A DNA stretch of 64,000 bases. Source: Patescibacteria group bacterium (GTDB lineage Bacteria > Patescibacteriota > Minisyncoccia > UBA6257 > GWB1-50-10). The stretch lies in contig JAMCYI010000006.1 of assembly GCA_023474215.1 (NCBI GenBank), positions 65,452 to 129,451 on the forward strand, given 5' to 3'. The position numbers were made by a program, and so were the translations under genes. Below, in pieces: positions 6,031 to 62,899 of this stretch (the first letter of the stretch is position 1; each line of letters opens with the position of its first letter). The notes below the pieces were generated by a model. That model was given only the letters and a program-made list of their open reading frames with translations. It searched no databases and had not been told where the DNA came from.

Positions 6031-7665
6031 ATGACGCGCCGCGTATTGGAGCGTATCCCCCACTTTCTTCCCCGGATTGAAGATGCCGTCCGGATCAAAA
6101 ATCTTCTTCGCCTCCATAAAAAGCGAAACGATTTTTTCACCGTACATTTCTTTGAGGTACGGCGTCCGGATGATCCCGTCGTTATGCTCGGCGGTGATGG
6201 AACCGCCGTATTTGAAGATCAGTTGGTAAACCTGTTCCGTCACCTCCGGGATGATCTTCCGCGTTTCCGGATCGTCCATATGCACGAGCGGAATGATGTG
6301 GAAATTCCCGTTCCCCGGGTGGCCGGCGATGGTATAGACCAGTTTGTCCTTGTATTTGTCGAGGATCGCGTTCACTTGCGGCAATATTTCAGGCATATAT
6401 TTCGGCTCGACAATGATGTCGTCGATGAAGGCGGCGGCATCCATTCCCTTCACGTGGCTGTGGATTAAGGCGAAGCTTTGCCGGCGAATGGTCCAGTACT
6501 CTTCTGATTCGGCGTCGCTCTTCACATTCCGGACCAAGAGCTTGTATTTTGTGGCTGCCGCGACGATCTCCTGGGCTTTCCGCTCCAATTCTTTTTCGTC
6601 GTCGGCCGTGACGGAAACAAGAAGGATCATTTTCGGCATTCCTCCGGAGCGAAGGAGCATCCCGATCTCGGGAATGAACTCAAATATAAGCTTGAAGAGG
6701 CTGCCTTTCATGAGCCTCATTAAGGTCGGGAAAAAGCGAATCGCAAGACCCATCGTTTTGTCGTCGTACGATTCGATGCTTTCGGGTTTCAAGGCTAAAA
6801 GGTCGTTCACGAGATCCGGCACGGGATCGAGCGTTTTCGAAAAGATGACGACAAGCCGGGTGTATTTCGGCGCAGGGACCAAGCGGAGGCGGGCCGCCGT
6901 CAAAAGCCCGAAGGTCCCCTGCGACCCCACGATCACTTTCGTGATATCGAAGGTTTTTTTGTCCCACACGTTCCACAAATAGTAGCCGGCGGAGTTTTTA
7001 CTGACCTTCGGCTTCGCAGCTATGATCGTTTCATAGTTGTCGTTGATCAACTGATAAAGTTTTCGGTAAACATCGCCTTCGAAGCCTTGTTCCTTGAGCT
7101 TTGCTTCGAGTTTTTCCCCTGACAAGGGCTCGAGATAATGTTCTTTGCCGTCGGCGAGGACGATATGGAGTCCCTCGACGAAATTTTCCGTCTTGCCGTA
7201 TTGTAAAGTCAGTTCGCCGCCGGAATTGTTATTGACCATGCCCCCGAGGGCGCACAAATCCTTGGATGCCGGATATGCGGGATAAAGCAGATGCTTCGCC
7301 TGAAGTTGTTTCTCGAGGTCGCGGAAATAAACCCCCGGTTCCACGATGACATATTTCTCTTTTTCATTGATTTCCCGAATATGATTGAAGTACTTTGTGA
7401 ACTCCACAATCACCGATTCGTTCAGCGGTCCACCGGACATATCGGTCCCTGCGGAACGGCCGGTCACGGATATTTTTTCGCCTGCCTTCTTTTTCACCTC
7501 CGCGAATTGAACGAGCTTCTCGACATCTTCCTTGTCCTTCGGAAAGACGACGGTTTCCGGCCGTACATTGAAAATGGAATAATCATGGCTGTAATCGGAC
7601 AAGGTTTTCTCGTCCGCTATCACGTCGCCTTGTATGAGTTTTTTCAATTCTTCAGACAGGTTCAT
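6019..7665 (-). CDS. FAD-binding oxidoreductase (FAD-linked oxidase, PCMH-type FAD domain plus C-terminal oxidase domain)
   Basis: 548 aa. An N-terminal FAD-binding PCMH-like block (VTGRSAGTDMSGGPL) is followed by a large FAD-linked-oxidase C-terminal-like region. The precise substrate family cannot be assigned. Confidence 0.65.
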   Translation of the reverse strand: MNLSEELKKLIQGDVIADEKTLSDYSHDYSIFNVRPETVVFPKDKEDVEKLVQFAEVKKKAGEKISVTGRSAGTDMSGGPLNESVIVEFTKYFNHIREINEKEKYVIVEPGVYFRDLEKQLQAKHLLYPAYPASKDLCALGGMVNNNSGGELTLQYGKTENFVEGLHIVLADGKEHYLEPLSGEKLEAKLKEQGFEGDVYRKLYQLINDNYETIIAAKPKVSKNSAGYYLWNVWDKKTFDITKVIVGSQGTFGLLTAARLRLVPAPKYTRLVVIFSKTLDPVPDLVNDLLALKPESIESYDDKTMGLAIRFFPTLMRLMKGSLFKLIFEFIPEIGMLLRSGGMPKMILLVSVTADDEKELERKAQEIVAAATKYKLLVRNVKSDAESEEYWTIRRQSFALIHSHVKGMDAAAFIDDIIVEPKYMPEILPQVNAILDKYKDKLVYTIAGHPGNGNFHIIPLVHMDDPETRKIIPEVTEQVYQLIFKYGGSITAEHNDGIIRTPYLKEMYGEKIVSLFMEAKKIFDPDGIFNPGKKVGDTLQYAARHMKS

Positions 7666-7673
7666 ATAAATAA

Positions 7674-7772
7674 AATTCTAAATCTTAAACAATGACCGAA
7701 ATATACGTTTTGAATTTTGAGTTTGGACATTGGAATTTATTTAGAATTTAGGATTTCGAAATTAGGATTTCA
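7674..7772. repeat. intergenic repeat element with TTAGGATTT units, copy R
   Basis: aattctaaatcttaaa, aatgaccgaaa...tttggacatt and tttagaatttaggatttcgaaattaggatttcaag are present. The terminal ttaggatttca overlaps the stop of the bcp gene. The unit order is related to copy L. Confidence 0.45.
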
Positions 7773-8247
7773 AGACCTTCAGGTCCTTGATGACTTCCTC
7801 GGCGTGGATTTCCGGCTTCACATCCTCGTAGATCTTCGCGATCTTCCCCTGCGGATCGATCAAAAACGACGTACGAAGCGTTCCTTCATACTCGCGCCCC
7901 ATAAATTTCTTCTTTCCCCATACGCCGTACTTTCTCACCACTTCTTTCTTTTCATCCGCGAGGAGCGTGAAGGGCAACTGGTATTTTTCAGCAAACTTTC
8001 CGTGGCTCCTCACCGAATCGACGCTCACGCCGAGCACGTTCGCCTTGAGTTTTTTGAAGTCCGGAAAATAATCGCGGATTATGCATGCTTCTTTTGTGCA
8101 TCCCGGCGTATCGTCCTTCGGATAAAAGTACAAAAGAACCCATCCTCCGGCGTATGCGGAAAGCGAATGGAGCTTCCCTTTTTGATCCAAGAGCTCGAAA
8201 TCGGGGGCTTGTTCCCCTACCTGCGGTTTATTGTTCTTTTTCTTCAT
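7762..8247 (-). CDS. bcp: peroxiredoxin, Bcp type (thiol peroxidase)
   Basis: The Bcp pattern APDFELLDQKGK..LYFYPKDDTPGCTKEAC with its peroxidatic Cys is present. The track ORF reaches 8358, but the likely start is the MKKKNNKPQV methionine. Confidence 0.8.
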   Translation of the reverse strand: MKKKNNKPQVGEQAPDFELLDQKGKLHSLSAYAGGWVLLYFYPKDDTPGCTKEACIIRDYFPDFKKLKANVLGVSVDSVRSHGKFAEKYQLPFTLLADEKKEVVRKYGVWGKKKFMGREYEGTLRTSFLIDPQGKIAKIYEDVKPEIHAEEVIKDLKVLKS

Positions 8248-8744
8248 GGTTGTAAAATATCTTCGCTCCGACCGTTGATCGACAGAACGACGTTCTGAAC
8301 CGTCGGGAACTGCCGCAAGGTTTCGACGATTTGCCACCTCGTCATGGCAACCCGGCATGAACCGCCGATGCCCGCTTCGAGAGATTCATCGAAATCGGCA
8401 TACGCCGTCCCGCTTGCGATCCGGAGGCTTTTGAGCGCAACGCCCGAATTGATGTTCGTAAAGTATCCCGCTGCCCGCTCTTCATCAGTGGGCCCCTGAA
8501 GCAGTTCGTTCACCGCCGCTTGTCCCACGGCTTGAGTTTTCGGGACCGTGCGCACAACCGGGAATACCTCTTTGCAGGATACGTTCGGATCGAGATTACT
8601 GTTACCGAAAAACACTTTTACGACGGAGGTTTCCTTCATTGAGTCGGCGTCATCGGAAACGATATCGGCTGGCAAATTTGAAACCGCGACCGCGAGGGCA
8701 ACTGCCGCAAGTCCTGCCGCTCCGTACCAAACTTCCCTACGCAT
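8244..8744 (-). CDS. GerMN (Gmad2-like) domain lipoprotein/secreted protein
   Basis: Signal peptide followed by a single domain matching the GerMN pattern (VKVFFGNSNLDP..C..VFPVVRTV...AVNELLQGPT.EE..GYFT.I..G..L.SL.I..GTAYADF). The call rests on the pattern only. Confidence 0.5.
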   Translation of the reverse strand: MRREVWYGAAGLAAVALAVAVSNLPADIVSDDADSMKETSVVKVFFGNSNLDPNVSCKEVFPVVRTVPKTQAVGQAAVNELLQGPTDEERAAGYFTNINSGVALKSLRIASGTAYADFDESLEAGIGGSCRVAMTRWQIVETLRQFPTVQNVVLSINGRSEDILQP

Positions 8745-15217: not shown

Positions 15218-15331
15218 ACTCTACTATTTTACCAATATCCTTTTTCCTGTCAAAGGGCTTTCTGATTCTTGCTCGTTCATAGGTTCTCGGCCGCTAAAAG
15301 CCCCCCAGATTCCACTCTCGAGGTGTAAGAA

Positions 15332-15886
15332 TTAGCGTGGGTACTGATAATACCAACGCGGTGGATTTCCTTTATTCTGCTCTACTTGGTTCTGATAGAA
15401 ATTAATACCTGCAAAAAGAATTAATGAAACAATACCAAGTATCAGCAATGTTTTAGCGGCATTCCGCCTTTTGTTAGTTTCCCTATCATGCACTTGCACT
15501 TGAGGATCTTTGCTGGTATCCATTTTTTCGTCGATAACCATTTCATCCGTCCTTATGCTATTGCCACCGTTTACCCTCCACTGGTTTATCAAAACTTGGT
15601 TTCGGAGAGATGTTTTTACATTTGCCTCATGAGCAAGGAAGGTGCAAATAATTGCCGCAAGCAAAAACATCCAAGATAAAAGCAATATCCACCAATCTAT
15701 GGGTTTTTCTTTTAAAAAAGAAACAAAGGCTATAGATACTCCAAATGCACCTGTTCCCAACAGAAGAATTATGTTGTCCATCTGCCTCAGGGAATCTATC
15801 TTGAGCTGGTGATGCATCTGCCAATTTGAAACTGCAATCTCGTCCTTTCTCTTCCTCTCCTTCTCCTTTTCATCAGCGGTATCCAT
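15332..15886 (-). CDS. hypothetical membrane protein (3 predicted TM) in an AT-richer islet
   Basis: 184-aa ORF with a charged N-terminus (DTADEKEKERKRKDE) and hydrophobic segments. Local composition is visibly AT-richer than the flanks. Confidence 0.45.
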   Translation of the reverse strand: MDTADEKEKERKRKDEIAVSNWQMHHQLKIDSLRQMDNIILLLGTGAFGVSIAFVSFLKEKPIDWWILLLSWMFLLAAIICTFLAHEANVKTSLRNQVLINQWRVNGGNSIRTDEMVIDEKMDTSKDPQVQVHDRETNKRRNAAKTLLILGIVSLILFAGINFYQNQVEQNKGNPPRWYYQYPR

Positions 15887-16121
15887 CGCCCTCCATTATA
15901 CATCAAAACCAAGGAAGATCCGCTTTCTTTTGAGCGGGTTTTTGAGGCGAGGTTATAAATTCCCAAGCGAAGACACAGGAAATAGGAATTTATCGCTGTG
16001 TGAATCCCGACGGTTTCATTTATGAAACCAAGGTTGAGTTCGAAAATTCCGTTCATTTCCCAGGATAAGCGAGGAGAATTTACCCGAGCCGAAACTCACG
16101 CCCGCGAGAGAGAAGGCGGAT

Positions 16122-39936: not shown

Positions 39937-40560
39937 TTATTGTACGTCTTTCCGGAAATATCGCACAATGCGAGTTATCCACATCCTTGTCGGCAGGCCT
40001 TTTTCCTTTGCCGCCGCCACCGCGCAACAAAAGCAAGCAATGAGCATCGAGACGATCCATCCAGCAAACACCTCGGCAAAGAGCGCATCTTCACGCTTTT
40101 CCACCTCGCGAATCGATCGTCCCACCATGACGAATCCGCCGCTGTATTTTGTGACAACAACCGCATCCCGGACCCCCTTTTCCGGCTGCCACGTGAAGCG
40201 ATCCTCGCCCTTCGACCGGACGTAATCAAGAACGCCGGGCGGCAAGGCAGGCATTCCGCCCCGTAAGTATCCCGATGAGCCGATCGGCTGGCCAGCATCG
40301 TCAAAAACAGTCGTAAAAACGGACAAGCTCGTTGCAATATCGATGCGCGTCGGAAGAATGACCGATTGAAACGCACCGCCGTTATCCAAACTTGCCGCGG
40401 CATCCTCGGCGATTTGAATCTGCGGATCGTTCGCCGACTGCCGATAATCCTGCTGAACCGCCGCATACATCGTCAAAAAAACAATGCTTACAAGAGCGAA
40501 CACGCAAAGGCATATCACAAGGTTCTTGTATTTCACGAAAGGTCCCATTACGGGGTTCAT
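39937..40560 (-). CDS. hypothetical membrane protein (N- and C-terminal TM)
   Basis: The start was trimmed to MNPVMGPFVKYKNLVICLCVFALVSIVFL. The periplasmic middle domain has no recognised motif. Confidence 0.4.
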   Translation of the reverse strand: MNPVMGPFVKYKNLVICLCVFALVSIVFLTMYAAVQQDYRQSANDPQIQIAEDAAASLDNGGAFQSVILPTRIDIATSLSVFTTVFDDAGQPIGSSGYLRGGMPALPPGVLDYVRSKGEDRFTWQPEKGVRDAVVVTKYSGGFVMVGRSIREVEKREDALFAEVFAGWIVSMLIACFCCAVAAAKEKGLPTRMWITRIVRYFRKDVQ

Positions 40561-40645
40561 TATCCTCCAAGAACCGTAAAAATGTAAACCCCTCCCAAGT
40601 TTCCCGCAGAAACTTGGGAGGGTAATCCACATTCTGTATCCTTAA

Positions 40646-47416: not shown

Positions 47417-47547
47417 CCCCTACACCTATCGGAGAGTGCAACGAAATACCCCCTTCAAACAATAGGGGAAATAGGGAGGGGGGGACAAACGACAATGGGA
47501 AATCAAAAGCATTGGGTAATGGGAATGCTCTCCGATAGGTGTGGGGA
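47417..47547. repeat. long inverted repeat (about 19-bp arms) around a ~90-nt G-rich loop, in an intergenic region
   Basis: CCCCTACACCTATCGGAGAG ... CTCTCCGATAGGTGTGGGG were read from the sequence. The stem extends through gagtgca/tgctc. The loop contains ggggaaatagggaggggggga. Confidence 0.4.
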
Positions 47548-47730
47548 TGAAGCCGGCTTCAGGAATGGTATAGTGAAAGTATAAGAAAAACACCGTCGTT
47601 CCGCGAAAAAGGGTGTGCGATTCCGCGGCAACCGCGTCGATTGTACTCGTCATGATTTGATTTGTTTCCCCAGAAATCCGACTGCATCTCCTAGTTCGTT
47701 CAGTATGCCACTTGAAAAAAACGATGTTAA

Positions 47731-49017
47731 TTACACGCTTTGCTCCAACAATCGGTCGGCGGTTTTCTTCCACCTCGACAGCGGTTCGTGAGTAAAAACC
47801 GCGATTGCTTTCTGAGTGGAATATCCGGCTTTCTTTAATTTCCCGAAACTTTCGATCCCTTCCTTGAGAAGCTTATGATATTCGGTAACATACACCTCCC
47901 CTATATCCTTATCGAGCAGTTTTTTAAAATCCTCCGAGCTCTTTCCTAATTTACCCGGCAATTCATCGTACACCCATCGTTCCGTCGCAAGACGTACCTG
48001 GTCGTTAAAATATTCGTAAAGCCCTCCCATTGCTTCCGACTTCGTCAGCGACGAGTAAATCTTTTGAGGATCTACTCCCTCAGCGCAATAAGCTAAGATT
48101 TCATTCGACGCTTGATAATCAATATCCTGTCGACTGAATCTGAGAAAGTGCTTCAGGGCAAGTTCTTTCTCCTCGTCGGTTCTCGCATGCTCAAGCCTTC
48201 CATCAATCAGAACTCTTTCGATTTTTTTACTAAAGAATGCCCACAAAGCATGTTGTTCTTCATGTTTTTGAGTACCCTTTGAATTGATGTATTCCTTTAC
48301 CGCAAATCCCCGCCAGCCTGATTTTTCGGCGATGATCGCCCCCTCTAAGTCGGGAATAAGTGAAGTGCTCACATGTGCGCCTCCGCTCCTGTCCGCGTTT
48401 TCCCGATCCGATGGTTGAATGTCTTCTTTCCCTTTCTTCAAAAATTTCTGGCTGCAAATGCGGGTGTAATCGTCCAGATTCTCGCACCGTACATAGAGTG
48501 TCACCGGCCCCTCGATAATTTCAACCTTCCCTTCGGGATCCCCGCCGAACAAGACCTTGAACAGCTCGCGGTCTTTGGGATATCGCTGCCGGATTTCCCT
48601 GACCTTTGCGTGCCTGAATTCGTAGAGATCCATAAGCAACTCCGACATTTCTTCCTGGTCTTGAGTCATGCCGTATCGCGATCCGAATTCCTTGATCGAC
48701 CGCAGGAGATCGTCCTTCGGTATATCGGGGTTTTTCTCGATTACGGCGATGGCGGCGGCCTGAACCGCCGCAAGGCCCTCAATGCGCCTCTTCAGTTTTT
48801 CCTTGAATCTACCGACCAATAACTCCCGGTATTCCTTGGGAGCATCTTTGATGTTCTGCAGCTCGGCGGTTATCTTGACCGCTTCCTCGTCATACATCGG
48901 AAAGATTTCCTCAGTACTTTTTTCCCACGCGATCTCGCCCCGCATGGCCTTTTCAACCGCAGTCTCGAGCGGACCTTCAATTTTTGGTTGTTGAAAAGAT
49001 ATTTTCTCCGGATTCAT
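47731..49017 (-). CDS. hypothetical protein (AT-richer islet), HExxH motif
   Basis: 428 aa and acidic. It starts MNPEKIS... and contains KHEEQHALWAFF. No family recognised. Confidence 0.5.
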   Translation of the reverse strand: MNPEKISFQQPKIEGPLETAVEKAMRGEIAWEKSTEEIFPMYDEEAVKITAELQNIKDAPKEYRELLVGRFKEKLKRRIEGLAAVQAAAIAVIEKNPDIPKDDLLRSIKEFGSRYGMTQDQEEMSELLMDLYEFRHAKVREIRQRYPKDRELFKVLFGGDPEGKVEIIEGPVTLYVRCENLDDYTRICSQKFLKKGKEDIQPSDRENADRSGGAHVSTSLIPDLEGAIIAEKSGWRGFAVKEYINSKGTQKHEEQHALWAFFSKKIERVLIDGRLEHARTDEEKELALKHFLRFSRQDIDYQASNEILAYCAEGVDPQKIYSSLTKSEAMGGLYEYFNDQVRLATERWVYDELPGKLGKSSEDFKKLLDKDIGEVYVTEYHKLLKEGIESFGKLKKAGYSTQKAIAVFTHEPLSRWKKTADRLLEQSV

Positions 49018-49047
49018 GGGGATATTCTAACACCGAGGCAAAGTGGG

Positions 49048-50829
49048 TCAATCCGCATCGCGGAATCCACCCGCCTGGATGTTCCAAAGTTTCCGATAAA
49101 GACCTCCCCGCTTCAAGAGATCCTGGTGCGTTCCCTCGGCCGCCATTTTGCCGTTCTCAATGACGACGATCCGGTCCATTTTCATAATAGTCGAAAGGCG
49201 GTGCGCGATAACGATGACGGTCTTTCCTTCCATGAGCGTTCGGAGCGCGTCCTGAATGAGAGCTTCCGATTCGGAATCCAGGCTCGATGTCGCTTCGTCG
49301 AGCACGAGAATGGGCGCATCCTTCAAGATCGCGCGCGCGATTGCGACACGCTGGCGCTCTCCTCCCGAGAGTTTCACGCCCCGCTCGCCGACAAAGGTTT
49401 GATATCCTTCCGTGAGCGTTCCGATAAACTCGTCGCAGTGAGCTTTTCTCGATGCTTCAATGACTTCCTCATCGGTCGCCCCGCGCCTCCCGTAGCGGAT
49501 ATTCTCCATGAGCGTCCGGTGGAAGAGGATCGGTTCCTGCGGCACGAATGCGATCGCATTCCTTAAACTTTCCTGGCTAACCTCCGCGATGTTTTGGCCG
49601 TCTATCTCAATTGCCCCTTTCGAAACGTCATAGAGACGGAGGAGAATCTTCGTGATGGTGGTCTTCCCCGCGCCCGATGGCCCCACGAGCGCGAGCTTTT
49701 CACCACCCCTGACCGTGAGATTGAAGCGCCGGAGGATCGGCCGGTCTTCGGAGAAGTAGAAATCGACATCTTTGAACTGAATTTTACAATCCGCCGTCGC
49801 GAGCGGACGGGCGCCGGGACGATCCTGGATGTCATGCGGGGTCTTCAAAATTTCAACCATCTCCACAGCGTCCGCGAACGCGTCGTAGAACCTCCGAAGC
49901 TCCCGGTTCAAACCGTTCAACTGGCCGAAGAGACCGAGGAGATAGCTTTGGATGAGCACGAAGTCACCGATCGTGATGAGCCCCCGCTCCCAGAACATCA
50001 CCGCGCCGTAGATGAGGCCGATGTTGATGCCTACCATGAGAATCCCCTGGATAGACCAGATGAGTTCATCGGCGCCCCACGAGCGCATGGTCGCCTTGCG
50101 CCAGAGATCGACGACGCCGTGGAAAAGCCCCCGTTCGTGGTCGTACCCCGAAAAGAGCGTGACGGTGTTTTGGTTCGATACGGCATCAGAAAGCGCCCCG
50201 ACCATCTTGCTGTCCGCCTCCGCCCGCGATACGCGGAGCGGCTGCCTCAAACGCGCGACGAAGATCTGAAACGCGATGAAGCAGACGACCCAGATGCCGA
50301 GTGCAATCCCGAGGACATGGTTTCTGAGAAAGAGGATGCCGACCGCCCCGACCGTGAAGAACGTCGTCGGGAAAAACTGGCCCATGATGCTATCCATCAT
50401 CGACTCGAAGGCGGCCGCGAACTTGCTCACGCGGCGCGTCAAAGTGCCGCTGAAGCGCGAAATGAAAAAATGATATGAGTGCCTGATGAGGTAATCGAAT
50501 GCCGACACGTAGAGGTCGGCCATGACCCGCGATTCAAGATGGATAATGGCGTAGGTTTGCGTCCGGCGGAACGCCCAGCTCACAACGGAAATGACTGCGA
50601 TCACAACGACCAACATCAAGAGCTGGTCGATCACCGCCGACGTTCTGACACCCGCGGCGAGAATATTGAAAAGCTGCCGCATGTAGAGCGGCGAAGTCAG
50701 ATCGGCAACCTGAACGCCGATAGCGCCGAAAAATACGAGCGCAAAGAGCCAGAGATGGCGCCGCACGCCATCCTGATACGCCCGAAATATGTCCCCCGCC
50801 TTCACGGGTTTTTGCGCATCGACCCCCAT
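49048..50829 (-). CDS. ABC exporter, fused permease and ATP-binding protein (MsbA-like)
   Basis: 6-TM N-terminal domain followed by an NBD with Walker A GPSGAGKTT, signature [14 protein letters not shown] and Walker B ILVLDEATSSLD. Confidence 0.85.
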   Translation of the reverse strand: MGVDAQKPVKAGDIFRAYQDGVRRHLWLFALVFFGAIGVQVADLTSPLYMRQLFNILAAGVRTSAVIDQLLMLVVVIAVISVVSWAFRRTQTYAIIHLESRVMADLYVSAFDYLIRHSYHFFISRFSGTLTRRVSKFAAAFESMMDSIMGQFFPTTFFTVGAVGILFLRNHVLGIALGIWVVCFIAFQIFVARLRQPLRVSRAEADSKMVGALSDAVSNQNTVTLFSGYDHERGLFHGVVDLWRKATMRSWGADELIWSIQGILMVGINIGLIYGAVMFWERGLITIGDFVLIQSYLLGLFGQLNGLNRELRRFYDAFADAVEMVEILKTPHDIQDRPGARPLATADCKIQFKDVDFYFSEDRPILRRFNLTVRGGEKLALVGPSGAGKTTITKILLRLYDVSKGAIEIDGQNIAEVSQESLRNAIAFVPQEPILFHRTLMENIRYGRRGATDEEVIEASRKAHCDEFIGTLTEGYQTFVGERGVKLSGGERQRVAIARAILKDAPILVLDEATSSLDSESEALIQDALRTLMEGKTVIVIAHRLSTIMKMDRIVVIENGKMAAEGTHQDLLKRGGLYRKLWNIQAGGFRDAD

Positions 50830-50869
50830 GAGAATAAGAAGATAATATCAGATTTGTTAGAATTACTCC

Positions 50870-51217
50870 ATGGACTCTATCCACATAACCGACCTGCTGT
50901 TCCATGGCAAGCACGGCGTCGGGGGCGACGAACGCAACGTCGAGCAGGAATTCTCGATCGAGGTGAGTCTGGGATTCGAAACCTCCCGAGCCGGCGCAAG
51001 CGATCGGCTCGCCGACACCGTTGACTACGGCGCTATCCGCGACACAATCCGCGAAGTGATCGAAGGACCCAGCCGGTATCTCATCGAAGCTCTGGCCGAA
51101 GACATCGCGAAGAGAATCCTCGAAGATAAACGGATACGATCGGCCGAGATCACCATTAAAAAAACCGCCGTTTGGAAGAACGGCGTCCCGAGCGTGACGA
51201 TCACGAGGGGCAATTGA
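50870..51217 (+). CDS. folB: dihydroneopterin aldolase
   Basis: 115 aa. I..L.F.G.HGV..DER..EQEF.I.V.L, with a conserved E/K pattern of FolB. Confidence 0.7.
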   Translation: MDSIHITDLLFHGKHGVGGDERNVEQEFSIEVSLGFETSRAGASDRLADTVDYGAIRDTIREVIEGPSRYLIEALAEDIAKRILEDKRIRSAEITIKKTAVWKNGVPSVTITRGN

Positions 51218-51292
51218 GTCCGACTGGCGGTTGTGGTATGACTAGAGGAGAACTTTTACTGATTTTGCAACGAACTAAAACCGGAGGTGTGT

Positions 51293-51952
51293 ATGGCAAT
51301 GCTTGCGGGACTTCTCTTGCTTTTCATCGTTCCCGGCAATCACGGAGCAACACATAAGTCCGACAGTACGGTCATTGAGGGGGTATATCAAGTCCAAATC
51401 ACCGAACTTCCCGATGTTCCGAAATTCCTCTCGGGATTCTTCGGCAAAGTGGCTCAATTTCTCGATCTTGCCCCCGATAAGTTAGACTACCGCGAAACGG
51501 TGCTTGGCCAACCGGAAACAGATGATTTTCGGATCGAACTCAAAGACCAAACGGGCCGGCAGTGGATCCATTTTTCCTCGGACACTGCGCTGTCATCCTT
51601 CATTGACCCGCCGGAATTCCGTACCGGTACGCTCCCGAAGGCCAAGCTGAAACCCGACGCTATTCGCTTCATTGTTGGCATCCGCGATTTCTTCATACGA
51701 GATCGGGGCTCTTTCTTCCACGGCCGATTCGTGCTGTGGGGTGATACAGTCGATTTCTATTCGACCCGGGATTCGCTTCGGCCGCTCCTCTATCGGTTCT
51801 CAAGTTTCAATCGAAAAGGCAAGCTTGTCATGAAAGGAGTGGTCTTGCGTGGCAGTCGCGATGGATTTGTCATCTATCCCTGGACCAGCCTTTACTTGTA
51901 CAAAGAAGAAACTGGGCTCATCTTGGAATTAAAGAGTCTCGAAATTAAGTAA
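51293..51952 (+). CDS. secreted hypothetical protein
   Basis: GGAGG lies upstream of ATGGCAATG. The signal peptide MAMLAGLLLLFIVPGNHG is followed by a ~200-aa domain of unknown function. A strong terminator follows. Confidence 0.5.
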   Translation: MAMLAGLLLLFIVPGNHGATHKSDSTVIEGVYQVQITELPDVPKFLSGFFGKVAQFLDLAPDKLDYRETVLGQPETDDFRIELKDQTGRQWIHFSSDTALSSFIDPPEFRTGTLPKAKLKPDAIRFIVGIRDFFIRDRGSFFHGRFVLWGDTVDFYSTRDSLRPLLYRFSSFNRKGKLVMKGVVLRGSRDGFVIYPWTSLYLYKEETGLILELKSLEIK

Positions 51953-51956
51953 AGAA

Positions 51957-51991
51957 CGGGAACCTTCCCTCGAAGGTTCCCGCTTTGTTTT
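51957..51991 (+). terminator. rho-independent terminator
   Basis: CGGGAACCTT-ccctcg-AAGGTTCCCG perfect 10-bp stem followed by CTTTGTTTT. Confidence 0.55.
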
Positions 51992-52064
51992 AACTTTGCT
52001 CTCCCACTGCTGCTCCCACGAAGGCTTAAAAGGTGGACGGTAAACAATCTATCAGAGGCGAAAA

Positions 52065-53267
52065 CTATTTTATAAGAACCTTGCGGTCTCGGTACTTTTT
52101 GCTTTCGAGGTCCTTCACATATCGTGTGTATGCCTCCTCGATTCTTTTGGCTTCCACGGGCATTATTTTCGCCATTTCCTGGAGATTATGTCTCCCACTT
52201 TTCGCTTCGGAGAGAACCTTCAGGAGTTCGTTATAACAACCCGCTTTCGTCATGATACTCACGGTGGCTGGATAGGTTTTTATAAATTCTTCCACGGAAA
52301 GATTCTTGTCTTCAACGAAGTTTTTCCAGTCATTTCTTAGTCGATGAGTTTCGTCGGTATACTTTTCCAGCTCCCAGGCATCTTCTTTTTTCCATTCAGG
52401 GTTTATCTCTTTCAGTGTTATTTCTCCTTTCCTATCTGCAGGAAGATACTTACTTAAAAATTCTTCGATGGGTATGTAGCCAACGGCCACTTCATACGGC
52501 GGCTTCCCCGTTTTCATGAACTCGTCGAACCGGCTCTTGCTGATATTCCCATTTTGGTCAATGAATTGCGACCACAGACCGTTGCCGTTGAACTGATTTT
52601 CAAGCGTCTTCACTTTTTTGAACCCGAGCCGTTCCGCGGCGGGAAGGGAAAGAAGCCATGATTCGCCGATGATTCCCCGCGCTTCGGGATATTTTTGGGG
52701 AATCATTTCGGCAAGTTTGGTAAACGATGCACCGATCTCGGTGAGTAGCGATTTTTCCGGACCGCTTTCATAAAAAGCAGGGAAATGAATTGCTAAAAAT
52801 TCCTCTTCTGGACCGAATCCTGCTTCCTCCATACGGCGGTTTTCATGCGTCCCCGACTCCGTTCTAATGACTCCGATCGTCGTATCATTTTCCGTCATCC
52901 TTTCGATTTCGGTTGGTTCCTCCTTTTTAAGATTGGCGTAGACGTCGAAGACATACTGGGTTATCAACTCCTCTCTCTTTTCTCGATCCGGCGTTTCCCG
53001 ATATATCCTATTTATTTCGTTCTCAATGGAAGTGGCAAAAGCTAACTTTTTGTCCGCCTCTTCACCTTCATGAACGTTTCGATATCTGTCCCGGAGACGT
53101 CTCATGATGGGGGTATATTCGTAAAGGACGTGGCTGAAATTCCCCTCACCCCTATAGTACGAATCGGCAAAATGGACTTCGAGAGCGGTTAAACGCTTTG
53201 CAAGTTCTGCTTCGCGATCTGCCTGGTTTTCTGTTTCTATGGATTGGGTTATCCGCTCTGGATTCAT
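52065..53267 (-). CDS. hypothetical protein (AT-richer islet), possible GNAT-like segment
   Basis: About 400 aa. The start was set at MNPERITQ (the track starts 6 codons earlier). Acidic. The segment ARGIIGESWLLSLPAAERLGFKKV weakly resembles the GNAT motif. It lies upstream of the intron-containing tRNA. Confidence 0.45.
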   Translation of the reverse strand: MNPERITQSIETENQADREAELAKRLTALEVHFADSYYRGEGNFSHVLYEYTPIMRRLRDRYRNVHEGEEADKKLAFATSIENEINRIYRETPDREKREELITQYVFDVYANLKKEEPTEIERMTENDTTIGVIRTESGTHENRRMEEAGFGPEEEFLAIHFPAFYESGPEKSLLTEIGASFTKLAEMIPQKYPEARGIIGESWLLSLPAAERLGFKKVKTLENQFNGNGLWSQFIDQNGNISKSRFDEFMKTGKPPYEVAVGYIPIEEFLSKYLPADRKGEITLKEINPEWKKEDAWELEKYTDETHRLRNDWKNFVEDKNLSVEEFIKTYPATVSIMTKAGCYNELLKVLSEAKSGRHNLQEMAKIMPVEAKRIEEAYTRYVKDLESKKYRDRKVLIK

Positions 53268-53427
53268 GCCCTCATTCTCAACCATCCGGGGGCATTTTTC
53301 AACCTCAAGTTATAGAATCGCCAGTTCGATTTCCTAACGGGGCATCCCGCTCCACGTCCTAGCGGGGTGTATGAGCAAGGTAGCAAAAATCAGGCCTTCT
53401 CGGTCCGCACGATAAAAAATACCTCAG

Positions 53428-53691
53428 CTCCGCGGGCAGGACTCGAACCTGCAACCATCTCCTTACAGTTCTCCTTCTGTTACCAAAAGGTCTGGACTAT
53501 CTCATGTCCCCGGGGGGGGACTCGGGTATATAGTCTCTACACATTTATCCCGCCGTTCCCAGCGAAAATTTAGCTCGGGATTGTCCGCCTGCCGGCGGAG
53601 TTCCCCGAATTAGCCCGATTTTCATTCATGCATTGCTGCATGAAGCTGCCTTACTTGACAGGGAGCCGCTCTACCATTGAGCTACCGCGGA
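53428..53691 (-). tRNA. tRNA-Asn(GUU) interrupted by a group I intron in the anticodon loop
   Basis: The 5' exon is UCCGCGGUAGCUCAAUGGUAGAGCGGCUCCCUGU and the 3' exon is UAAGGAGAUGGUUGCAGGUUCGAGUCCUGCCCGCGGAG. The acceptor stem has 7 perfect pairs (U1:A72, G73). The spliced anticodon loop is CUGUUAA, and the T-loop is UUCGAGU. The CCA end is not encoded. Confidence 0.7.
53466..53657 (-). other. group I self-splicing intron (tRNA-type, about 192 nt) inserted between anticodon-loop positions 35 and 36
   Basis: P1 is formed by exon CUGU pairing with the internal guide GCAG 9 nt into the intron, with U.G at the splice site. The intron ends with G. The conserved core elements are present in the correct order: P AAUUCGGGGAA, Q AAUCCCGAGC, R UAGAGACUA, S GAUAGUCC. 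Confidence 0.7.
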
Positions 53692-53785
53692 GCTGAAGTA
53701 TCTTTCACAAAACAACTGAAGTGCATTATAAGTTGCATTTCTCTTCTTTTCAAGTATAAAATAGGATGAGATAAGTTTCCGGAAA

Positions 53786-53858
53786 GCCCCTATAGCTCAG
53801 TTGGTAGAGCACCTGCCTTTTAAGCAGTGGGTCGCAGGTTCGAATCCTGCTGGGGGCA
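53786..53858 (+). tRNA. tRNA-Lys(UUU)
   Basis: GCCCCUA-UA-GCUC-AGUUGGUA-GAGC-A-CCUGC-CUUUUAA-GCAGU-GGGUC-GCAGG-UUCGAAU-CCUGC-UGGGGGC-A. It is near-identical in the D and T arms to canonical bacterial tRNA-Lys, with discriminator A73. Confidence 0.85.
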
Positions 53859-53910
53859 CAAACGAGAATTTTTAATTTCCAATTTTTAATTTTTAAACAT
53901 AGAATGGGGG

Positions 53911-54231
53911 TTGGGAAAAATGGAGAGCAAGAAATTTCAGCGCACCAGAGAAGATTTTACCTGCGAAAAGTGCGGGGTTGCTGTCCGAGGGAACGGATAC
54001 ACCAATCATTGCCCGCAGTGTCTCTGGAGCAAACATGTCGATATATTCCCCGGCGATCGCCGAGAAATGTGCCGGGGCCTTATGGAACCCATCGCCACTG
54101 AGAAAAAAGGTAAGGAATATATTGTTCTCCATCGCTGCATCGAATGCGGATTTGAGAGAAAAAACAAGATCGCGGATGGCGATAATTTCGATACCGCCAA
54201 AGAAATAACGGCAAAGGGTTACAATGTATAA
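53911..54231 (+). CDS. RNHCP domain zinc-ribbon protein
   Basis: CEKCG ... NGYTNHCPQCLWSKHVD ... CIECG. Multiple CxxC pairs and the (R/T)NHCP signature are present. Confidence 0.5.
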   Translation: MGKMESKKFQRTREDFTCEKCGVAVRGNGYTNHCPQCLWSKHVDIFPGDRREMCRGLMEPIATEKKGKEYIVLHRCIECGFERKNKIADGDNFDTAKEITAKGYNV

Positions 54232-58835: not shown

Positions 58836-60053
58836 TTACGGAAGTAAATTCCTCAAGAAATCTTTGATTGACCTTATTTTTTGGATCGGCCTCGTGTTTT
58901 CTTCCGAGGATTTAAGCATTAAACCGACTGCAACCGCGAATTCCGGGTCGTCGATCATTTCTTTGTGGGCCGGGTTCAGAATTTCAAACCGTGAGAGGTT
59001 CGGAAACCCGACTTGAGCTGGCAACCTCATTTCCCCGCGGAGCATTTCATCCATCTTGTACAACTTGACTCCCCCGCCGGTCGCTACCACCCCTCCCGGA
59101 AGCTGCACGTTTCGGCCGATCGCCTTGATTTCATTATTTATTAAATCGAGCATTTCCGCAACTCTCACCTCGATGATCTCGGTCATGAATTTTCTCGACA
59201 CTTCGCCTTCACTTTTGCCATCGACGTCGGCGAGCTTGATAACATCCCGTTTTCCGACCCCCGAAGCCGTTGCCGAACTGTAACTCACTTTCAACTTCTC
59301 AGCGAGATCGATGGGAATTTTGAGACCGATTGCAATATCGTTCGTGATATACGAAGATCCGATGGGAATCGTCTTTGCGTGGAGGATTTTTCCTTCCTCA
59401 AAAACGGCGATGTTCGTCGTTCCAAAACCGAAGTCGATGAGGAGCACGCCCAAATTTTTTTGTTTTTTTGAAAGGACGGCTTCCGCCGCGGCGAGCGGAC
59501 TGAATACCAACCCGCCGATCGAAACATCGATCGAATCGAACAATTTCACCAACGGACTTATTTGAGATGAAACGCCTTCAATGATCAAGGTTTCCACTTC
59601 CAAGCGATTGCCCGGCATGCCCAAAGGATCCAAAATATCCCCAATGTCATCGACAAAATACTCTTTGATGATATTGTGAAGAACGAACGAATTGGGGCTT
59701 GCTTTGAAAGCGAGTGATAATTGATTTACCTTTTCGATGTCTTCGCTTCGTATCTCCCGCTGCACGTTCGAAATGGCGACCGCACCTCTCGAGGGACGCG
59801 GCTTGACGTGCTCGCTTTGGACGTTCACAAAAACATTTTCAGCCGCCCTCTTGTACATTTTTTGAACATCTTCGAAGAGTCTTCCCAATGCGTCGGCTGC
59901 TTCTTCAAAATCGACGAGCACTCCCTTCCGAAAACCCGCCGACGGCTGTTTAAAAACCGACACGACGGACAATAATCCGTCTTTTTTTTCTTCGGCGACG
60001 ATGCCCTTAAACTCCGAGGACCCTACGTCGAGGCTGGTTAAGATTTTTGGCAT
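58836..60053 (-). CDS. ftsA: cell division protein FtsA
   Basis: Actin-like ATPase fold motifs (LDVGSS.., DFGFGTTNIAVF, VVATGGGV). Immediately upstream of ftsZ. Confidence 0.85.
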   Translation of the reverse strand: MPKILTSLDVGSSEFKGIVAEEKKDGLLSVVSVFKQPSAGFRKGVLVDFEEAADALGRLFEDVQKMYKRAAENVFVNVQSEHVKPRPSRGAVAISNVQREIRSEDIEKVNQLSLAFKASPNSFVLHNIIKEYFVDDIGDILDPLGMPGNRLEVETLIIEGVSSQISPLVKLFDSIDVSIGGLVFSPLAAAEAVLSKKQKNLGVLLIDFGFGTTNIAVFEEGKILHAKTIPIGSSYITNDIAIGLKIPIDLAEKLKVSYSSATASGVGKRDVIKLADVDGKSEGEVSRKFMTEIIEVRVAEMLDLINNEIKAIGRNVQLPGGVVATGGGVKLYKMDEMLRGEMRLPAQVGFPNLSRFEILNPAHKEMIDDPEFAVAVGLMLKSSEENTRPIQKIRSIKDFLRNLLP

Positions 60054-60475
60054 AGTTGATTCCAGATTTTCCGCTCCAAGTTATTCATTATTATACTCTC
60101 TTTTGCACCTTCGTGGGTATACCCCAAAAGGTGGAGAATTCCATGAACCACCAAAAACCCAAGCTCGTCCCCTTTTTTCTCCGCCCAGTCGGGAGCCAGG
60201 AACAATTCCCCGATGAACCGGGTTCGACCAAGATCGGGCCGCGGTACCGAAAAAGGAACTTCAAAGCTCAAAACATTGGTCGGCTTCGGTTTTCCCCGAT
60301 ACTTCCGATTGATGGATTTCATCGTCGCGTCCGACACGAGGAAGATCTCGAGCGAAATTCCCCGCTTCCGAAGCTTCTGTAACGAACAAAGAGCCGTCCG
60401 CTGGAGAGCTCTTTCGAACTTTTTAAATTTCTTTTTCTCAGAAAAGACGGGGGCAATCGAGGCGGACATGAACAT
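60038..60475 (-). CDS. ybeY: rRNA maturation RNase YbeY
   Basis: The HGILHLLGYTHE zinc-binding motif is present. Confidence 0.85.
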   Translation of the reverse strand: MFMSASIAPVFSEKKKFKKFERALQRTALCSLQKLRKRGISLEIFLVSDATMKSINRKYRGKPKPTNVLSFEVPFSVPRPDLGRTRFIGELFLAPDWAEKKGDELGFLVVHGILHLLGYTHEGAKESIIMNNLERKIWNQLCQKS

Positions 60476-60937
60476 TCAGGAACTTAATTTTTCCTTGACC
60501 AACTGCCCTACCCGTGAAGCCTCTGCACCTCCTTTGGCGCGTTTCATTACTTCGCCCATCACCTTGCCGAAATCCTTCGGTCCGGCAGGTCGGACACTCA
60601 CAATCGCTTCCTCGACGATTTTTTCCAGGTCAGCATCGGACATTTCGGGCGGCAAATACGATCGAATGCACTCCAACTCTTTCTTTTCTTTCTCCGCCAA
60701 ATCACTTCTTCCACCCTTCTCGTAAACCTCAAACGATTCGCGCCTTTTCTTGGCTTCTTTTTTTAACACCTCCTCAACTTCTTCGTCGGTAAGCTTTTCT
60801 CCGAGGCCCTTTCCCCTCTTTTCAATCTCCCTCGTTTGAATGCTCGAAAGGAGAAACCGAAGCGTGCCAACTTTGAAGTCGTCCCTTGATCTCATTGCTT
60901 CCTTCAGGTCTCCGCTTATCCGTTCTTTGAGTTCCAT
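60476..60937 (-). CDS. GatB/YqeY domain protein
   Basis: 153 aa, with K/E-rich all-alpha YqeY pattern (LKEAMRSRD...LRFLLSSIQTREIEK). Confidence 0.8.
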   Translation of the reverse strand: MELKERISGDLKEAMRSRDDFKVGTLRFLLSSIQTREIEKRGKGLGEKLTDEEVEEVLKKEAKKRRESFEVYEKGGRSDLAEKEKKELECIRSYLPPEMSDADLEKIVEEAIVSVRPAGPKDFGKVMGEVMKRAKGGAEASRVGQLVKEKLSS

Positions 60938-60941
60938 GTTC

Positions 60942-61160
60942 CTATTTTGCGGAATATCCGAGTTTCCTCATTTTCTTCACTTGGCGGGCTTTTGCGCTCT
61001 TATAGACCGCCGATAATTTTCTCTTTCTCCGATTCACGGGGCGGCTCGAGCTCTTCCTTTTTCTTACCTCCTTCAAAACGCCGCTCTGCTGGACCCGCTT
61101 ATTGAATCGATACAAGAACGAGCCCGTACTCTCATTTTTCCTTCTTTTAACTTCTATCAT
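60942..61160 (-). CDS. rpsU: 30S ribosomal protein S21
   Basis: 72 aa and highly basic. V.RRKNES...FLYRFNKRV...G.L.E.R.R....P...RKRK matches the bS21 pattern. Confidence 0.8.
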   Translation of the reverse strand: MIEVKRRKNESTGSFLYRFNKRVQQSGVLKEVRKRKSSSRPVNRRKRKLSAVYKSAKARQVKKMRKLGYSAK

Positions 61161-61201
61161 TTTTGTTTTTACTTTTTATATTGTTTTATTTTTACGACCC
61201 T

Positions 61202-61612
61202 TTACTTCACCGTCAAAATTTTCATCCTTATTTCTTCCAAGCCTTCGCGTGGCGGATTATTGACCACAGAATGAACCGATCCTCCGCCGTCATCGTTCCA
61301 TCGCGGCATGATATGGATATGCAAATGATCGACGGTTTGCCCGGAAACGCGACCGTGATTCACGCCGATCGTAAAACCATCCGGCTGGAGCGCTTTTTGA
61401 AGAAGACTTGTGACTTTTTTCACCGCAGCAAAAACCGGTTCCACCGCCTCGGGCGGAAGATCCAAAATGTTCTCGGCGTGTACTTTCGGGATCACCATCG
61501 TGTGCCCCGGCGAACGGGGGTGAATGTCCAAAATGCCAAGTGTCGCGTCGTCCTCATAAATGATGGAGGCCGGAATTTCCTTGCTGGCTATCTTACAAAA
61601 AAGGCAATCCAT
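61202..61612 (-). CDS. HIT-family (histidine triad) protein
   Basis: CLFCKI opening and HLHIHIMPR histidine triad. Confidence 0.85.
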   Translation of the reverse strand: MDCLFCKIASKEIPASIIYEDDATLGILDIHPRSPGHTMVIPKVHAENILDLPPEAVEPVFAAVKKVTSLLQKALQPDGFTIGVNHGRVSGQTVDHLHIHIMPRWNDDGGGSVHSVVNNPPREGLEEIRMKILTVK

Positions 61613-61615
61613 ACC

Positions 61616-62899
61616 CTATTCATTATTGAGCCTTTTCTTCACTTCTTCAACCAGCTTGTCGACGAGGATCGTTTCCTGGATGCCGGAGGTCATATCCCGC
61701 AGAATCACGGTACCGTCAAAAACTTCCTTTTGTCCCAAGAGGAGCGCCAGTTTGATGCCCATCCGTTCGGCGGTCTTTATTTGAGCTTTCAGCGTTTTCT
61801 TACCTACCATTTCGACGACAGCAACGCCGGAGAGCCGAAGTTTGTTCATAAGCTTCAAGGCACCCTTCTTTGCTTGATCGCCGATGACCAAAAAGAAAAC
61901 CTTCGGCTTTGACTTGAAGCGCGGTTCCACATTTTGCCGCTTCATCGCTTCCATGACCCGCTCGACCCCAACATTCGCCCCGACGGCCGGAATTTGCCGT
62001 TTGAATACCGCTTCGGAAAGATAATCGTACCGGCAACCGAATGCCAAGGGGTACGGCATTTCAGGCGTACGGAATTCGAATGTCGTCCGATTATTGAGAT
62101 CGCCCGTCGAAACCATGTTCGGATCCGGCTCGTAGGGTATGCCGTTGTCTTCTACGAGTTCGAGCACCGATTTCAAATGATTGTTACAGCTTTGACAAAG
62201 GTAATCGAAAATGATCGGCCCTTCCAACCGGATCGCCTTGCACTTTTCTTCATTGCACGAAAGCAGCAAAAAGGGATTGATCTCAAAATTCCTGGCGCAA
62301 GTTTTGCAAACATCTTTTAATCTTCCCCGATAATAATTCTGCAGTTTATGCTTGAAGATCCCGTGGCACGTATGACAGCCCGAACTTCCGATCTTCAGAA
62401 CGACGTTCGCGAGCCTCAAACTCTTAAAAAAGTCGTAGAGAGCGATGATGATTTCCCCGTCGTATATCGGGTCCGCTTCGCCGATCACCTGAAATCCGAA
62501 TTGATGGAACTGCCGCAGGAAATATTCATCCGTCTGAACGTCGCGAAAGACTGGACCGAAATAAAAGACTTTGAGCGGATATGCAAAGTACGCCAATTTA
62601 TTATCGATGAAGCTCCGGAGAACGGACTCCCGAAAACTGAACCGAAGTGCAGCTTTCATCTTTCCCGCTTTCAACGGAAAGAGTTCACGCTCGAGGACGT
62701 CCCGATCGCTGCCGAATGCGTTCTCGAAAATTTCATATCGCTCCACGGCGGAAAGCCCCATAAAATTGAAGTCGTGGAGTTCGCTTACCGCCTTGCCGGT
62801 TTCAAGAAGCTGCCGCCAATACGCTTGATTCCTCGGCAGGATATCCGGCATTCCTGCGATTCCCCATACCGCTTCATGACTTTTTGGTTTTTGTTTCAT
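61616..62899 (-). CDS. histidine--tRNA ligase paralog with a Cys-rich insertion
   Basis: HisRS-family motifs (GMPDILP, FRDVQTDEYFLRQFHQFGFQVIG, GCRYDYL...PAVGANVGVER) plus an anticodon-binding C-terminal domain. It has an inserted segment carrying about 10 Cys/His (GCHTCH...CKTC...C..EKC...CQSC), suggestive of zinc binding. The two HisRS copies are clearly divergent from each other. Confidence 0.6.
   Translation of the reverse strand: MKQKPKSHEAVWGIAGMPDILPRNQAYWRQLLETGKAVSELHDFNFMGLSAVERYEIFENAFGSDRDVLERELFPLKAGKMKAALRFSFRESVLRSFIDNKLAYFAYPLKVFYFGPVFRDVQTDEYFLRQFHQFGFQVIGEADPIYDGEIIIALYDFFKSLRLANVVLKIGSSGCHTCHGIFKHKLQNYYRGRLKDVCKTCARNFEINPFLLLSCNEEKCKAIRLEGPIIFDYLCQSCNNHLKSVLELVEDNGIPYEPDPNMVSTGDLNNRTTFEFRTPEMPYPLAFGCRYDYLSEAVFKRQIPAVGANVGVERVMEAMKRQNVEPRFKSKPKVFFLVIGDQAKKGALKLMNKLRLSGVAVVEMVGKKTLKAQIKTAERMGIKLALLLGQKEVFDGTVILRDMTSGIQETILVDKLVEEVKKRLNNE

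Follow-up and report, generated by a model that had tools for sequence, protein, structure and literature searches.

Do two genes for large uncharacterised proteins that lie close to a tRNA pair in a Patescibacteria genome belong to one family, and have they been acquired at this locus? The stretch in question (the window) is the whole 64,000 nt analysed from contig JAMCYI010000006.1, and the genes encode protein A (47731-49017) and protein B (52065-53267), named by NCBI M1413_01555 and M1413_01535, respectively, each as 'hypothetical protein, Patescibacteria group bacterium'. An earlier note, made from the sequence alone, had placed both, perhaps together with a third protein starting MNPVMG, in a single fast-evolving and effector-like family, horizontally acquired or variable, based on a shared MNPE(K/R)I N-terminus, AT-richer surroundings and the nearby tRNAs. 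Our findings favour (with a probability of about three in four) a scenario that sees A and B as two unrelated accessory genes in variable slots of an otherwise conserved neighbourhood. So while the literal observations of the note are mostly correct and its variable or acquired islet reading is supported for both genes, it was wrong about a shared family. In kind, accessory genes in hypervariable slots are an ordinary result. The features on which this argument draws are the following.

47426-50856, either strand: first segment, a spacer with an MGMT' relic followed by A and an ABC exporter, absent in the closest relative L012 (blastn)

47525-47614, plus strand: relic of a second MGMT gene (MGMT', DNA_binding_1), of which the promoter and first codons remain but not the start codon (blastn)

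47731-49017, minus strand: protein A, 428 aa, a putative zinc metallohydrolase (homologues, conservation, AlphaFold2 model)

49048-50829, minus strand: ABC exporter half-transporter (ABC_membrane + ABC_tran), 593 aa (Pfam)

50870-51217, plus strand: FolB (dihydroneopterin aldolase), a conserved backbone gene

51287-51952, plus strand: 221-aa protein (o221) with a hydrophobic, signal-peptide-like N-terminus, in no curated family

51995-53653, either strand: second segment, B with the 3' exon and intron of tRNA-Asn, absent from L012 (blastn)

52065-53267, minus strand: protein B, 400 aa from Met7 of an open reading frame (ORF) that extends to 53285 (homologues, AlphaFold2 model, Foldseek)

53427-53691, minus strand: tRNA-Asn(GUU) with a 192-nt group I intron (Rfam, alignment)

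53786-53859, plus strand: tRNA-Lys(UUU), divergent from tRNA-Asn (tRNA scan, Rfam)

Both proteins exist much as described, and both on the minus strand: A is a 428-aa ORF starting MNPEKISFQ, and B is part of a 406-aa ORF (52065-53285) in which MNPERITQS begins at Met7 (start 53267). With net charges of -8 (A) and -14 (B), both are acidic, and AlphaFold2 models show both as mostly helical, each with a central beta-sheet domain. Their uncharacterised status is confirmed: none of Pfam, NCBIfam, PHROGs and PADLOC has a match for A, for B or for the 221-aa ORF. BLASTP between A and B, however, finds only a 7-residue N-terminal match (E 0.7-1), a profile of 39 A sequences compared by hhalign with one of 9 B sequences scores a probability of 0.16% (E 0.37), and the A model, whose order of secondary-structure elements is unlike that of B, has no GNAT match in Foldseek. 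Since there is no pairwise, profile or fold similarity between them, the claim of a single paralogous family is rejected: A and B are unrelated.

Nor can the N-terminus serve as a family mark. Five of its six residues are identical and the other is a K/R match, and the motif is not conserved within family A, where N-termini are hypervariable (the 87% orthologue begins MNSEKI, and all more distant members differ) and where the first ~42 residues of A (1-42) are disordered in the model; family B, in turn, keeps MNxExI only among five close members. The M-N-P-E codons are identical in A and B, the upstream DNA being otherwise unrelated except for a common -10 geometry, and the match of the first six codons (MNPE(K/R)I) is coincidental. 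As to the PxDRE-type segment that both proteins were said to share, the motifs are indeed present (PKDRE at A residue 147, with PSDRE at 202, and PDRE at B residue 99) yet occupy non-equivalent, unalignable positions: PKDRE falls within a conserved 'YPDDxxLF' block of family A while the helix that bears PDRE lacks conservation among distant B homologues. The MNPVMG protein, too, exists, from Met25 of minus-strand ORF 39937-40632, and is syntenic in L012 (95% identity); pairwise BLASTP detects no similarity of this membrane protein to A or to B.

The same region was fetched from related genomes with the adjoining VIT1 gene as probe, and genes, tRNAs and both families were mapped in them. Gene orders for the window and for L012, L011, L013 and L005, with differences from the window at 4-fold sites in brackets, are as follows.

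Window: MGMT, o122, NUDIX, MGMT' relic, A, ABC, FolB, o221, B, tRNA-Asn (intron), tRNA-Lys, RNHCP, VIT1, RNR, FtsZ, FtsA

L012 (closest, 0.07-0.09): MGMT, o122, NUDIX, FolB, o221, tRNA-Lys, tRNA-Asn (no intron, pair inverted), RNHCP, VIT1

L011 (~0.3): NUDIX, FolB, o221, A-family gene, tRNA-Asn (no intron), tRNA-Lys

L013 (~0.3-0.36): NUDIX, MGMT', truncated A (233 aa) and 180 bp of ABC, FolB, o221, tRNA-Asn (intron)

L005 (~0.5): MGMT', CSD, A (87%), ABC (92%), FolB, o221, GIY-YIG ORF, tRNA-Asn (intron), tRNA-Lys and two partial copies

The conserved neighbourhood thus reads FtsA-FtsZ-RNR-VIT1-RNHCP-tRNA-Lys/tRNA-Asn ... FolB ... NUDIX-MGMT, and its proteins are close in sequence to those of the window (L012: RNR 99%, FtsA 99.5%; L011: FtsA 98%; L013: RNR 96%; L005: RNR 92%). 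Within it, the NUDIX-FolB junction comes with or without an ABC-A cassette depending on the relative, and the slot downstream of tRNA-Asn is filled by B (window), by an A-family gene (L011, 62% identity), by a GIY-YIG nuclease gene (L005, ORF at 6325-6783, Pfam E 2.6e-10) or by nothing. By blastn, L012 is without A, ABC, B and the intron at this same locus, where the flanks are 95-96% identical and where 22 bp replace 47426-50856 of the window. A and ABC are absent in L011 as well as in L012, and B is absent at the slot in L012, L011, L013 and L005, with no remnant of it in the relatives' slots by tblastn (E<=10). The ABC gene accompanies A in the window and in L005 (92% aa identity), persists as a 180-bp remnant in L013 and is absent from L012 and L011.

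It is this presence and absence among relatives, together with discordant synonymous divergence, which supports the 'acquired or variable' part of the earlier note. At 4-fold sites, the window and L005 differ by 0.50 (RNR), 0.455 (FtsZ), 0.49 (VIT1) and 0.52 (MGMT) in the core (n = 637 sites) and by only about half of this in the cassette (ABC 0.266, n = 282; A 0.243, n = 144). Consistent with this, the window cassette is 86-87% identical at the nucleotide level to L005 and 77% to L013, and the core relationship is reversed. Because its closest copy is found in the more distant lineage L005, the cassette appears to have been exchanged by recombination rather than inherited strictly vertically. 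FolB, at 76% identity to L012 next to neighbours at 97-98%, probably marks the right-hand edge of the exchanged segment. The MGMT' relic adjoining A matches the L005 arrangement and is 89% identical to L005 11906-11995 and 83.5% identical to L013 6658-6742, both of which cover the 5' part of a complete MGMT' gene. We read these data as the import by recombination, into an L012-like backbone, of a segment like that of L005 (MGMT' fragment, A, ABC, FolB); A would have arrived, or been retained, together with its upstream ABC exporter as a cassette of ~3.4-3.8 kb.

Alternatively, ABC-A, MGMT' and B could all be ancestral and have been deleted independently, with weak selection lowering their GC and no horizontal input at all. 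Such a history of vertical inheritance and differential loss is in line with the remains in L013 (truncated A, 180 bp of ABC, full MGMT') and the MGMT' relic in the window, with the AT-richness of A-family genes in both other loci, both of them in the same conserved neighbourhood, and with the lack of an integrase, transposase or att repeat beside either gene. It would not, however, predict an ABC-A difference of 0.24-0.27 (n = 426) between window and L005 where the four core genes stand at 0.46-0.52, nor a cassette nearer to L005 than to L013 though the window core is nearer to L013. Likewise, B is missing from the slot in 4/4 relatives with the region assembled, and L011, whose core is 94-98% identical, holds its A-family gene in another slot and at just 62% identity. 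So to our minds, loss as the sole cause seems unlikely, but decay and loss do operate also, since L013 keeps a remnant of the cassette.

The vicinity of a tRNA pair, which the earlier note had called a classic integration hotspot, raises another option, namely that an element with an integrase, since lost, entered the chromosome at the 3' end of either tRNA-Asn or tRNA-Lys and delivered A, B or both. B does adjoin the pair, 160 nt downstream of tRNA-Asn and co-oriented with it, whereas A is 4.4 kb off, behind ABC, FolB, the 221-aa gene and B. Like tRNA-linked islets and hypervariable slots in general, the locus carries cargo that differs between near-identical genomes at the same tRNA-adjoining position and that is AT-richer than the backbone; unlike them, it lacks an integrase and an att duplication, carries cargo of single genes, and shows an AT bias that goes with the gene families rather than with a foreign origin. 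The window has no integrase gene between MGMT and RNR, and the note saw none elsewhere. Every ORF between 45979 and 57434 is accounted for, without a recombinase among them; no transposase or att-type repeat was found to flank A or B, and a repeat search of 51200-54000 gave only short chance repeats, none of them a direct copy of a tRNA 3' end. In L005, two extra partial tRNA-Lys 3' copies lie by tRNA-Lys (5490-5735) and look like footprints of past insertions.

Elsewhere, tRNAs do recur near family A. Of 63 non-redundant metagenomic A-family loci 44 were assessable, and a co-oriented tRNA lies <=500 bp upstream in 7/44 (L041, L043, L044, L045, L073, L080, L098; seven different tRNAs) as compared to 5/177 control ORFs (odds ratio (OR) 6.5, Fisher one-sided p = 0.003), with distances from tRNA to A-family gene as short as 3-56 nt. 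For tRNAs <=500 bp on either side there is a weak trend (OR 1.9, p = 0.08). Because the control ORFs were crudely called and come from those same loci, we take this enrichment as a lead and not as a result. A tyrosine recombinase is encoded two genes downstream in L098 and a Y1 transposase in L041, while in L042, a Jorgensenbacteria contig, the A-family gene adjoins TraG-like and DUF8128 genes; a conserved pairing of ABC with A in other lineages was not seen in three unrelated A loci. The co-oriented position of B, the tRNA count, the L098 and L041 enzymes, the partial copies in L005 and the absence of A, ABC and B at the same locus in close relatives would all suit a tRNA-targeting island. 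Weighed against the missing integrase and direct repeats, the remoteness of A from the tRNAs and the nature of the controls, we consider such an island even less probable than loss on its own. Least of all can we support the idea of A, B and perhaps the MNPVMG protein as paralogues in one effector-like family: the motifs are literally there and both proteins are acidic and largely helical, but with no pairwise similarity, a negligible profile probability, different predicted folds, an N-terminus that is hypervariable and disordered in family A, dissimilar contexts of PKDRE and PDRE and a syntenic membrane protein unlike either, it is very improbable, and the claim is wrong and should not be propagated.

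Base composition, by contrast with what the earlier note had assumed, does not tell of recent acquisition. The background is hardly GC-rich (window mean 51.6%), and among the three islets, when scored as z against same-size windows, 15300-15900 (z = -3.3) and 51290-53330 (z = -2.0; B gene alone z = -2.35) are AT-richer, but 47700-49020 (z = -1.5, 8% tail), which holds A, stays inside the variance. Dips as low occur elsewhere (~6750-8400, 60000-61900). GC at third codon positions (GC3) is typically 0.60-0.70 in window genes as opposed to 0.55 in A, 0.50 in B and 0.42 in a 184-aa ORF. Genes of families A and B fall below their neighbours in GC and GC3 in 6/6 loci (GC3 z -1.9 to -3.4), namely A in L005 and L011, both in the same conserved neighbourhood, and B in L001 and L007 plus L008 and L010 (33-34% GC genomes). 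Because AT-richness follows both families everywhere we examined, the dip is unusable as evidence of recent acquisition, and lower GC is an intrinsic property of both families, which probably stems from K/E-rich composition and weak codon selection. The 184-aa gene (15332-15886, minus strand) has the lowest GC in the window (0.40) and is located between UvrD helicase and glutaredoxin genes; its product shows hydrophobic stretches resembling about three membrane spans and has no credible family in Pfam, NCBIfam, PHROGs or PADLOC.

What, then, do the two genes encode? Family A is large and widespread: exhaustive hmmsearch of 1.84 billion cluster representatives (50% identity clusters) retrieves 1,496 with E<=1e-3, of which 850 reach E<=1e-30. 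A word-index search gave 39 homologues, the named ones from Patescibacteria, Jorgensenbacteria or unclassified 'bacterium' metagenome-assembled genomes (MAGs), and family members of named source are all Patescibacteria/CPR (Candidate Phyla Radiation). The A gene encodes a ~380-residue domain on its own; the domain also occurs inside giant proteins, one of which (P0073, 3,039 aa) has it at residues 2129-2516 and together with GDSL-lipase and C39-like (Peptidase_C39_2) domains, while several other members of 1,000-2,400 aa have no recognisable extra domains. A precomputed PF26854 label for one homologue (P0011) was not reproduced by Pfam search and was discarded. With 170 members aligned to the family hidden Markov model, D183, H252, E253 and H256 are strictly invariant (170/170), and E306 (169/170), W416 (166/170) and Y334 (165/170) nearly so. 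In the AlphaFold2 model (pLDDT 82), a four-strand sheet (165-232) is followed by a helix (246-276) that starts HEEQH and bears the HExxH motif (H252, E253, H256) and then by a helix (297-312) with E306 in a 'DEILAY' context.

Gluzincins, for example thermolysin (M4), neprilysin (M13) and ACE (M2), combine HExxH with a downstream Glu ligand. Element order and ligand pattern of A are presumably those of gluzincin metallohydrolases: as in these enzymes, HExxH opens a long helix after a beta-sheet, and a Glu 50 residues downstream has an 'E-I-L-A-Y' context recalling the ExxA(D) motif; a near-invariant Tyr (Y334) is present in family A, too. A differs from gluzincins in its large (~380 aa), mostly helical domain with an extra helix between the HExxH and Glu helices, in the invariant D183 and near-invariant W416, and in lacking both a signal peptide and any sequence-profile or Foldseek match to a zincin. 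Judged from sequence conservation and the predicted model, A is probably a zincin-type (gluzincin-like) metal-dependent hydrolase.

Family B is far smaller, with 11 proteins among 5.8e9 (5.8 billion). Met7 is the invariant start column of its alignment and a GAGAAT hexamer ends 6 nt before it, which is why we take 53267 as the true start of B. Its AlphaFold2 model (pLDDT 82) consists of an N-terminal helical, a central alpha/beta (~135-295) and a C-terminal helical domain, and the top 50 Foldseek matches in the Protein Data Bank (PDB) are nearly all GNAT-fold proteins. Best among them is the two-domain acyltransferase 4mfz (E 2.5e-3, prob 0.98, 302 aligned columns), followed by GNAT toxins (7byy, prob 0.99), FeeM and AAC(6'). 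The alignment to 4MFZ, an acyltransferase with decanoyl-CoA, is about as long as its whole 319-residue chain. By comparison to 4MFZ and to the small GNAT enzymes and toxins (7BYY, FeeM 2G0B, AAC(6')), B has an extra C-terminal helical domain of ~110 residues; it differs from the small ones, moreover, in having no antitoxin-like neighbour, and from GNAT enzymes in having no match to GNAT or acetyltransferase (Acetyltransf) models of Pfam or NCBIfam. At the strand end where a CoA-binding motif would be sought, the conserved sequence in family B is G-x-S-W-L and then A-x-R-L-G-F, without GxG/A. Going by its model, B is GNAT-like in fold and likely to act as an acyl-CoA-dependent acyltransferase.

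A paralogue of B (P0042, M1413_01275; 76-78% identity) is annotated in the same NCBI MAG, 43 protein accessions off. It and its orthologues (L001, L007, L121) are found in a conserved block with (MGMT)-B-HAD, an array of 550-590-aa proteins, CutA1, a TraG/VirD4-like ATPase and DUF8128, and the array proteins are paralogous to each other and without a Pfam match. Distant B homologues (28-32% identity) are located among core genes, either after SecA or between M14 peptidase and PheT. In this context, a 2025 survey found VirD4-like coupling proteins to be abundant in Patescibacteria and mostly not linked to virB4; families A and B are not mentioned in it (PMC12102498). The tRNA enrichment, the transposase, recombinase and TraG/VirD4-like neighbours and the one giant lipase/cysteine-peptidase fusion might be taken to mean that family A is an undescribed zincin-like domain that travels as mobile cargo, maybe as a host- or competitor-directed effector of episymbionts, with B as a rarer cargo of the same slots. 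We hold this only tentatively and, on present evidence, deem it unlikely.

Several points weigh against our reading of the locus and of the two proteins. All locus comparisons involve metagenome-assembled contigs, for which errors in binning or assembly are possible. Much of the presence and absence is accounted for by differential loss from an ancestor with more of these genes, as the decayed ABC-A next to a full MGMT' in L013 illustrates, and constraint on ABC-A, rather than its transfer, could in principle be behind its lower synonymous divergence. The hydrolase assignment of A draws solely on the invariant HExxH...E and the order of secondary-structure elements: curated zincin profiles and solved zincin structures do not match A, and Foldseek of the A model against PDB and BFVD gives no significant match. 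As for B, Foldseek E-values are weak (best 2.5e-3) and TM-scores low (0.2-0.5), and inspection of the alignment reveals no Q/RxxGxG/A CoA-binding motif. Searches of PDB sequences with the A and B profiles returned coiled-coil/repeat noise only.

Flux at this locus extends to the tRNA itself. The calls of tRNA-Lys and of an intron-containing tRNA-Asn in the earlier note were both right according to tRNA scan, Rfam and alignment with intron-less copies of relatives. Rfam RF00028 matches 53473-53671 on the minus strand (63.3 bits vs a gathering score of 50), and the ORF-less intron (~53466-53657) interrupts the anticodon loop between positions 35 and 36. Alignment with the intron-less tRNA-Asn of L012 and L011 puts the exon junction at CTGT-intron-TAAGG, with anticodon GTT, and the spliced tRNA equals their copy except for compensatory changes in the acceptor stem. 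ARAGORN misses the gene by default and finds it with -i, calling it Thr(tgt). The intron is present in the window, L005, L013 and L014 and absent from the closest relatives L012 and L011, also from L015.

Group I introns in anticodon loops of bacterial tRNAs are known from cyanobacterial tRNA-Leu(UAA) and tRNA-fMet, from Azoarcus tRNA-Ile and from Agrobacterium tRNA-Arg. Like these, the intron described here is small, ORF-less and inserted in the anticodon loop, and its distribution among close relatives is similarly sporadic; the host gene differs, being tRNA-Asn(GUU) of a Patescibacteria genome. A search of one literature library found no report of a bacterial tRNA-Asn group I intron, nor of families A and B in Patescibacteria. 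The tRNA-Asn/tRNA-Lys pair (53654-53864) is inverted as a unit in L012 (9411-9598), and in their 3' halves the two tRNAs resemble each other in inverted orientation over 30 nt (83%; 53436-53465 / 53821-53850).

Signals for transcription were also found around A and B, as listed here.

49024-49051, minus strand: promoter-like site of A, TTGACC-16-TAGAAT, its -10 box ending 6 nt before the ATG

51955-51984, either strand: GC-rich, terminator-like hairpin with an 11-13 bp stem and T-runs on both strands, between the convergent 221-aa gene and B

53274-53302, minus strand: weak promoter-like site of B, TTGAAA-17-GAGAAT, its -10 box ending 6 nt before the Met7 ATG

These sites suggest that A and B have their own promoters and may give rise to independent leaderless transcripts. 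In many genes of the window, a -10-like hexamer ends 5-8 nt before the start without room for a Shine-Dalgarno sequence (starts at 2502, 8828, 15886, 36399, 45979, 47374, 49017, 50870, 53267, 53911 and 54233, for example), and leaderless transcripts seem, going by these hexamers, to be common in this genome. An upstream module shared specifically by A and B was considered and dismissed: all it comprises is the -10 geometry, which is frequent in the window, and the M-N-P-E codons.

Next to B, the 221-aa protein is syntenic in all relatives yet hypervariable, with 97% identity to L012 and 41-45% to L011, L013 and L005, in which the genes adjoining it are 73-98% identical. Such variability is in keeping with a surface protein that is under diversifying selection or subject to allele replacement.

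For work on these genomes, our findings imply that a gene family can show a GC dip as a lasting trait, so that such a dip need not mean recent transfer. What they document is flux at the level of genes between near-identical Patescibacteria genomes, in the form of single-gene cargo, cassette exchange and the gain or loss of an intron. Their wider interest lies in the size of family A and its clean active-site signature, as yet without a curated model: a family this large with such an HExxH...E signature merits both a curated model and a biochemical test.

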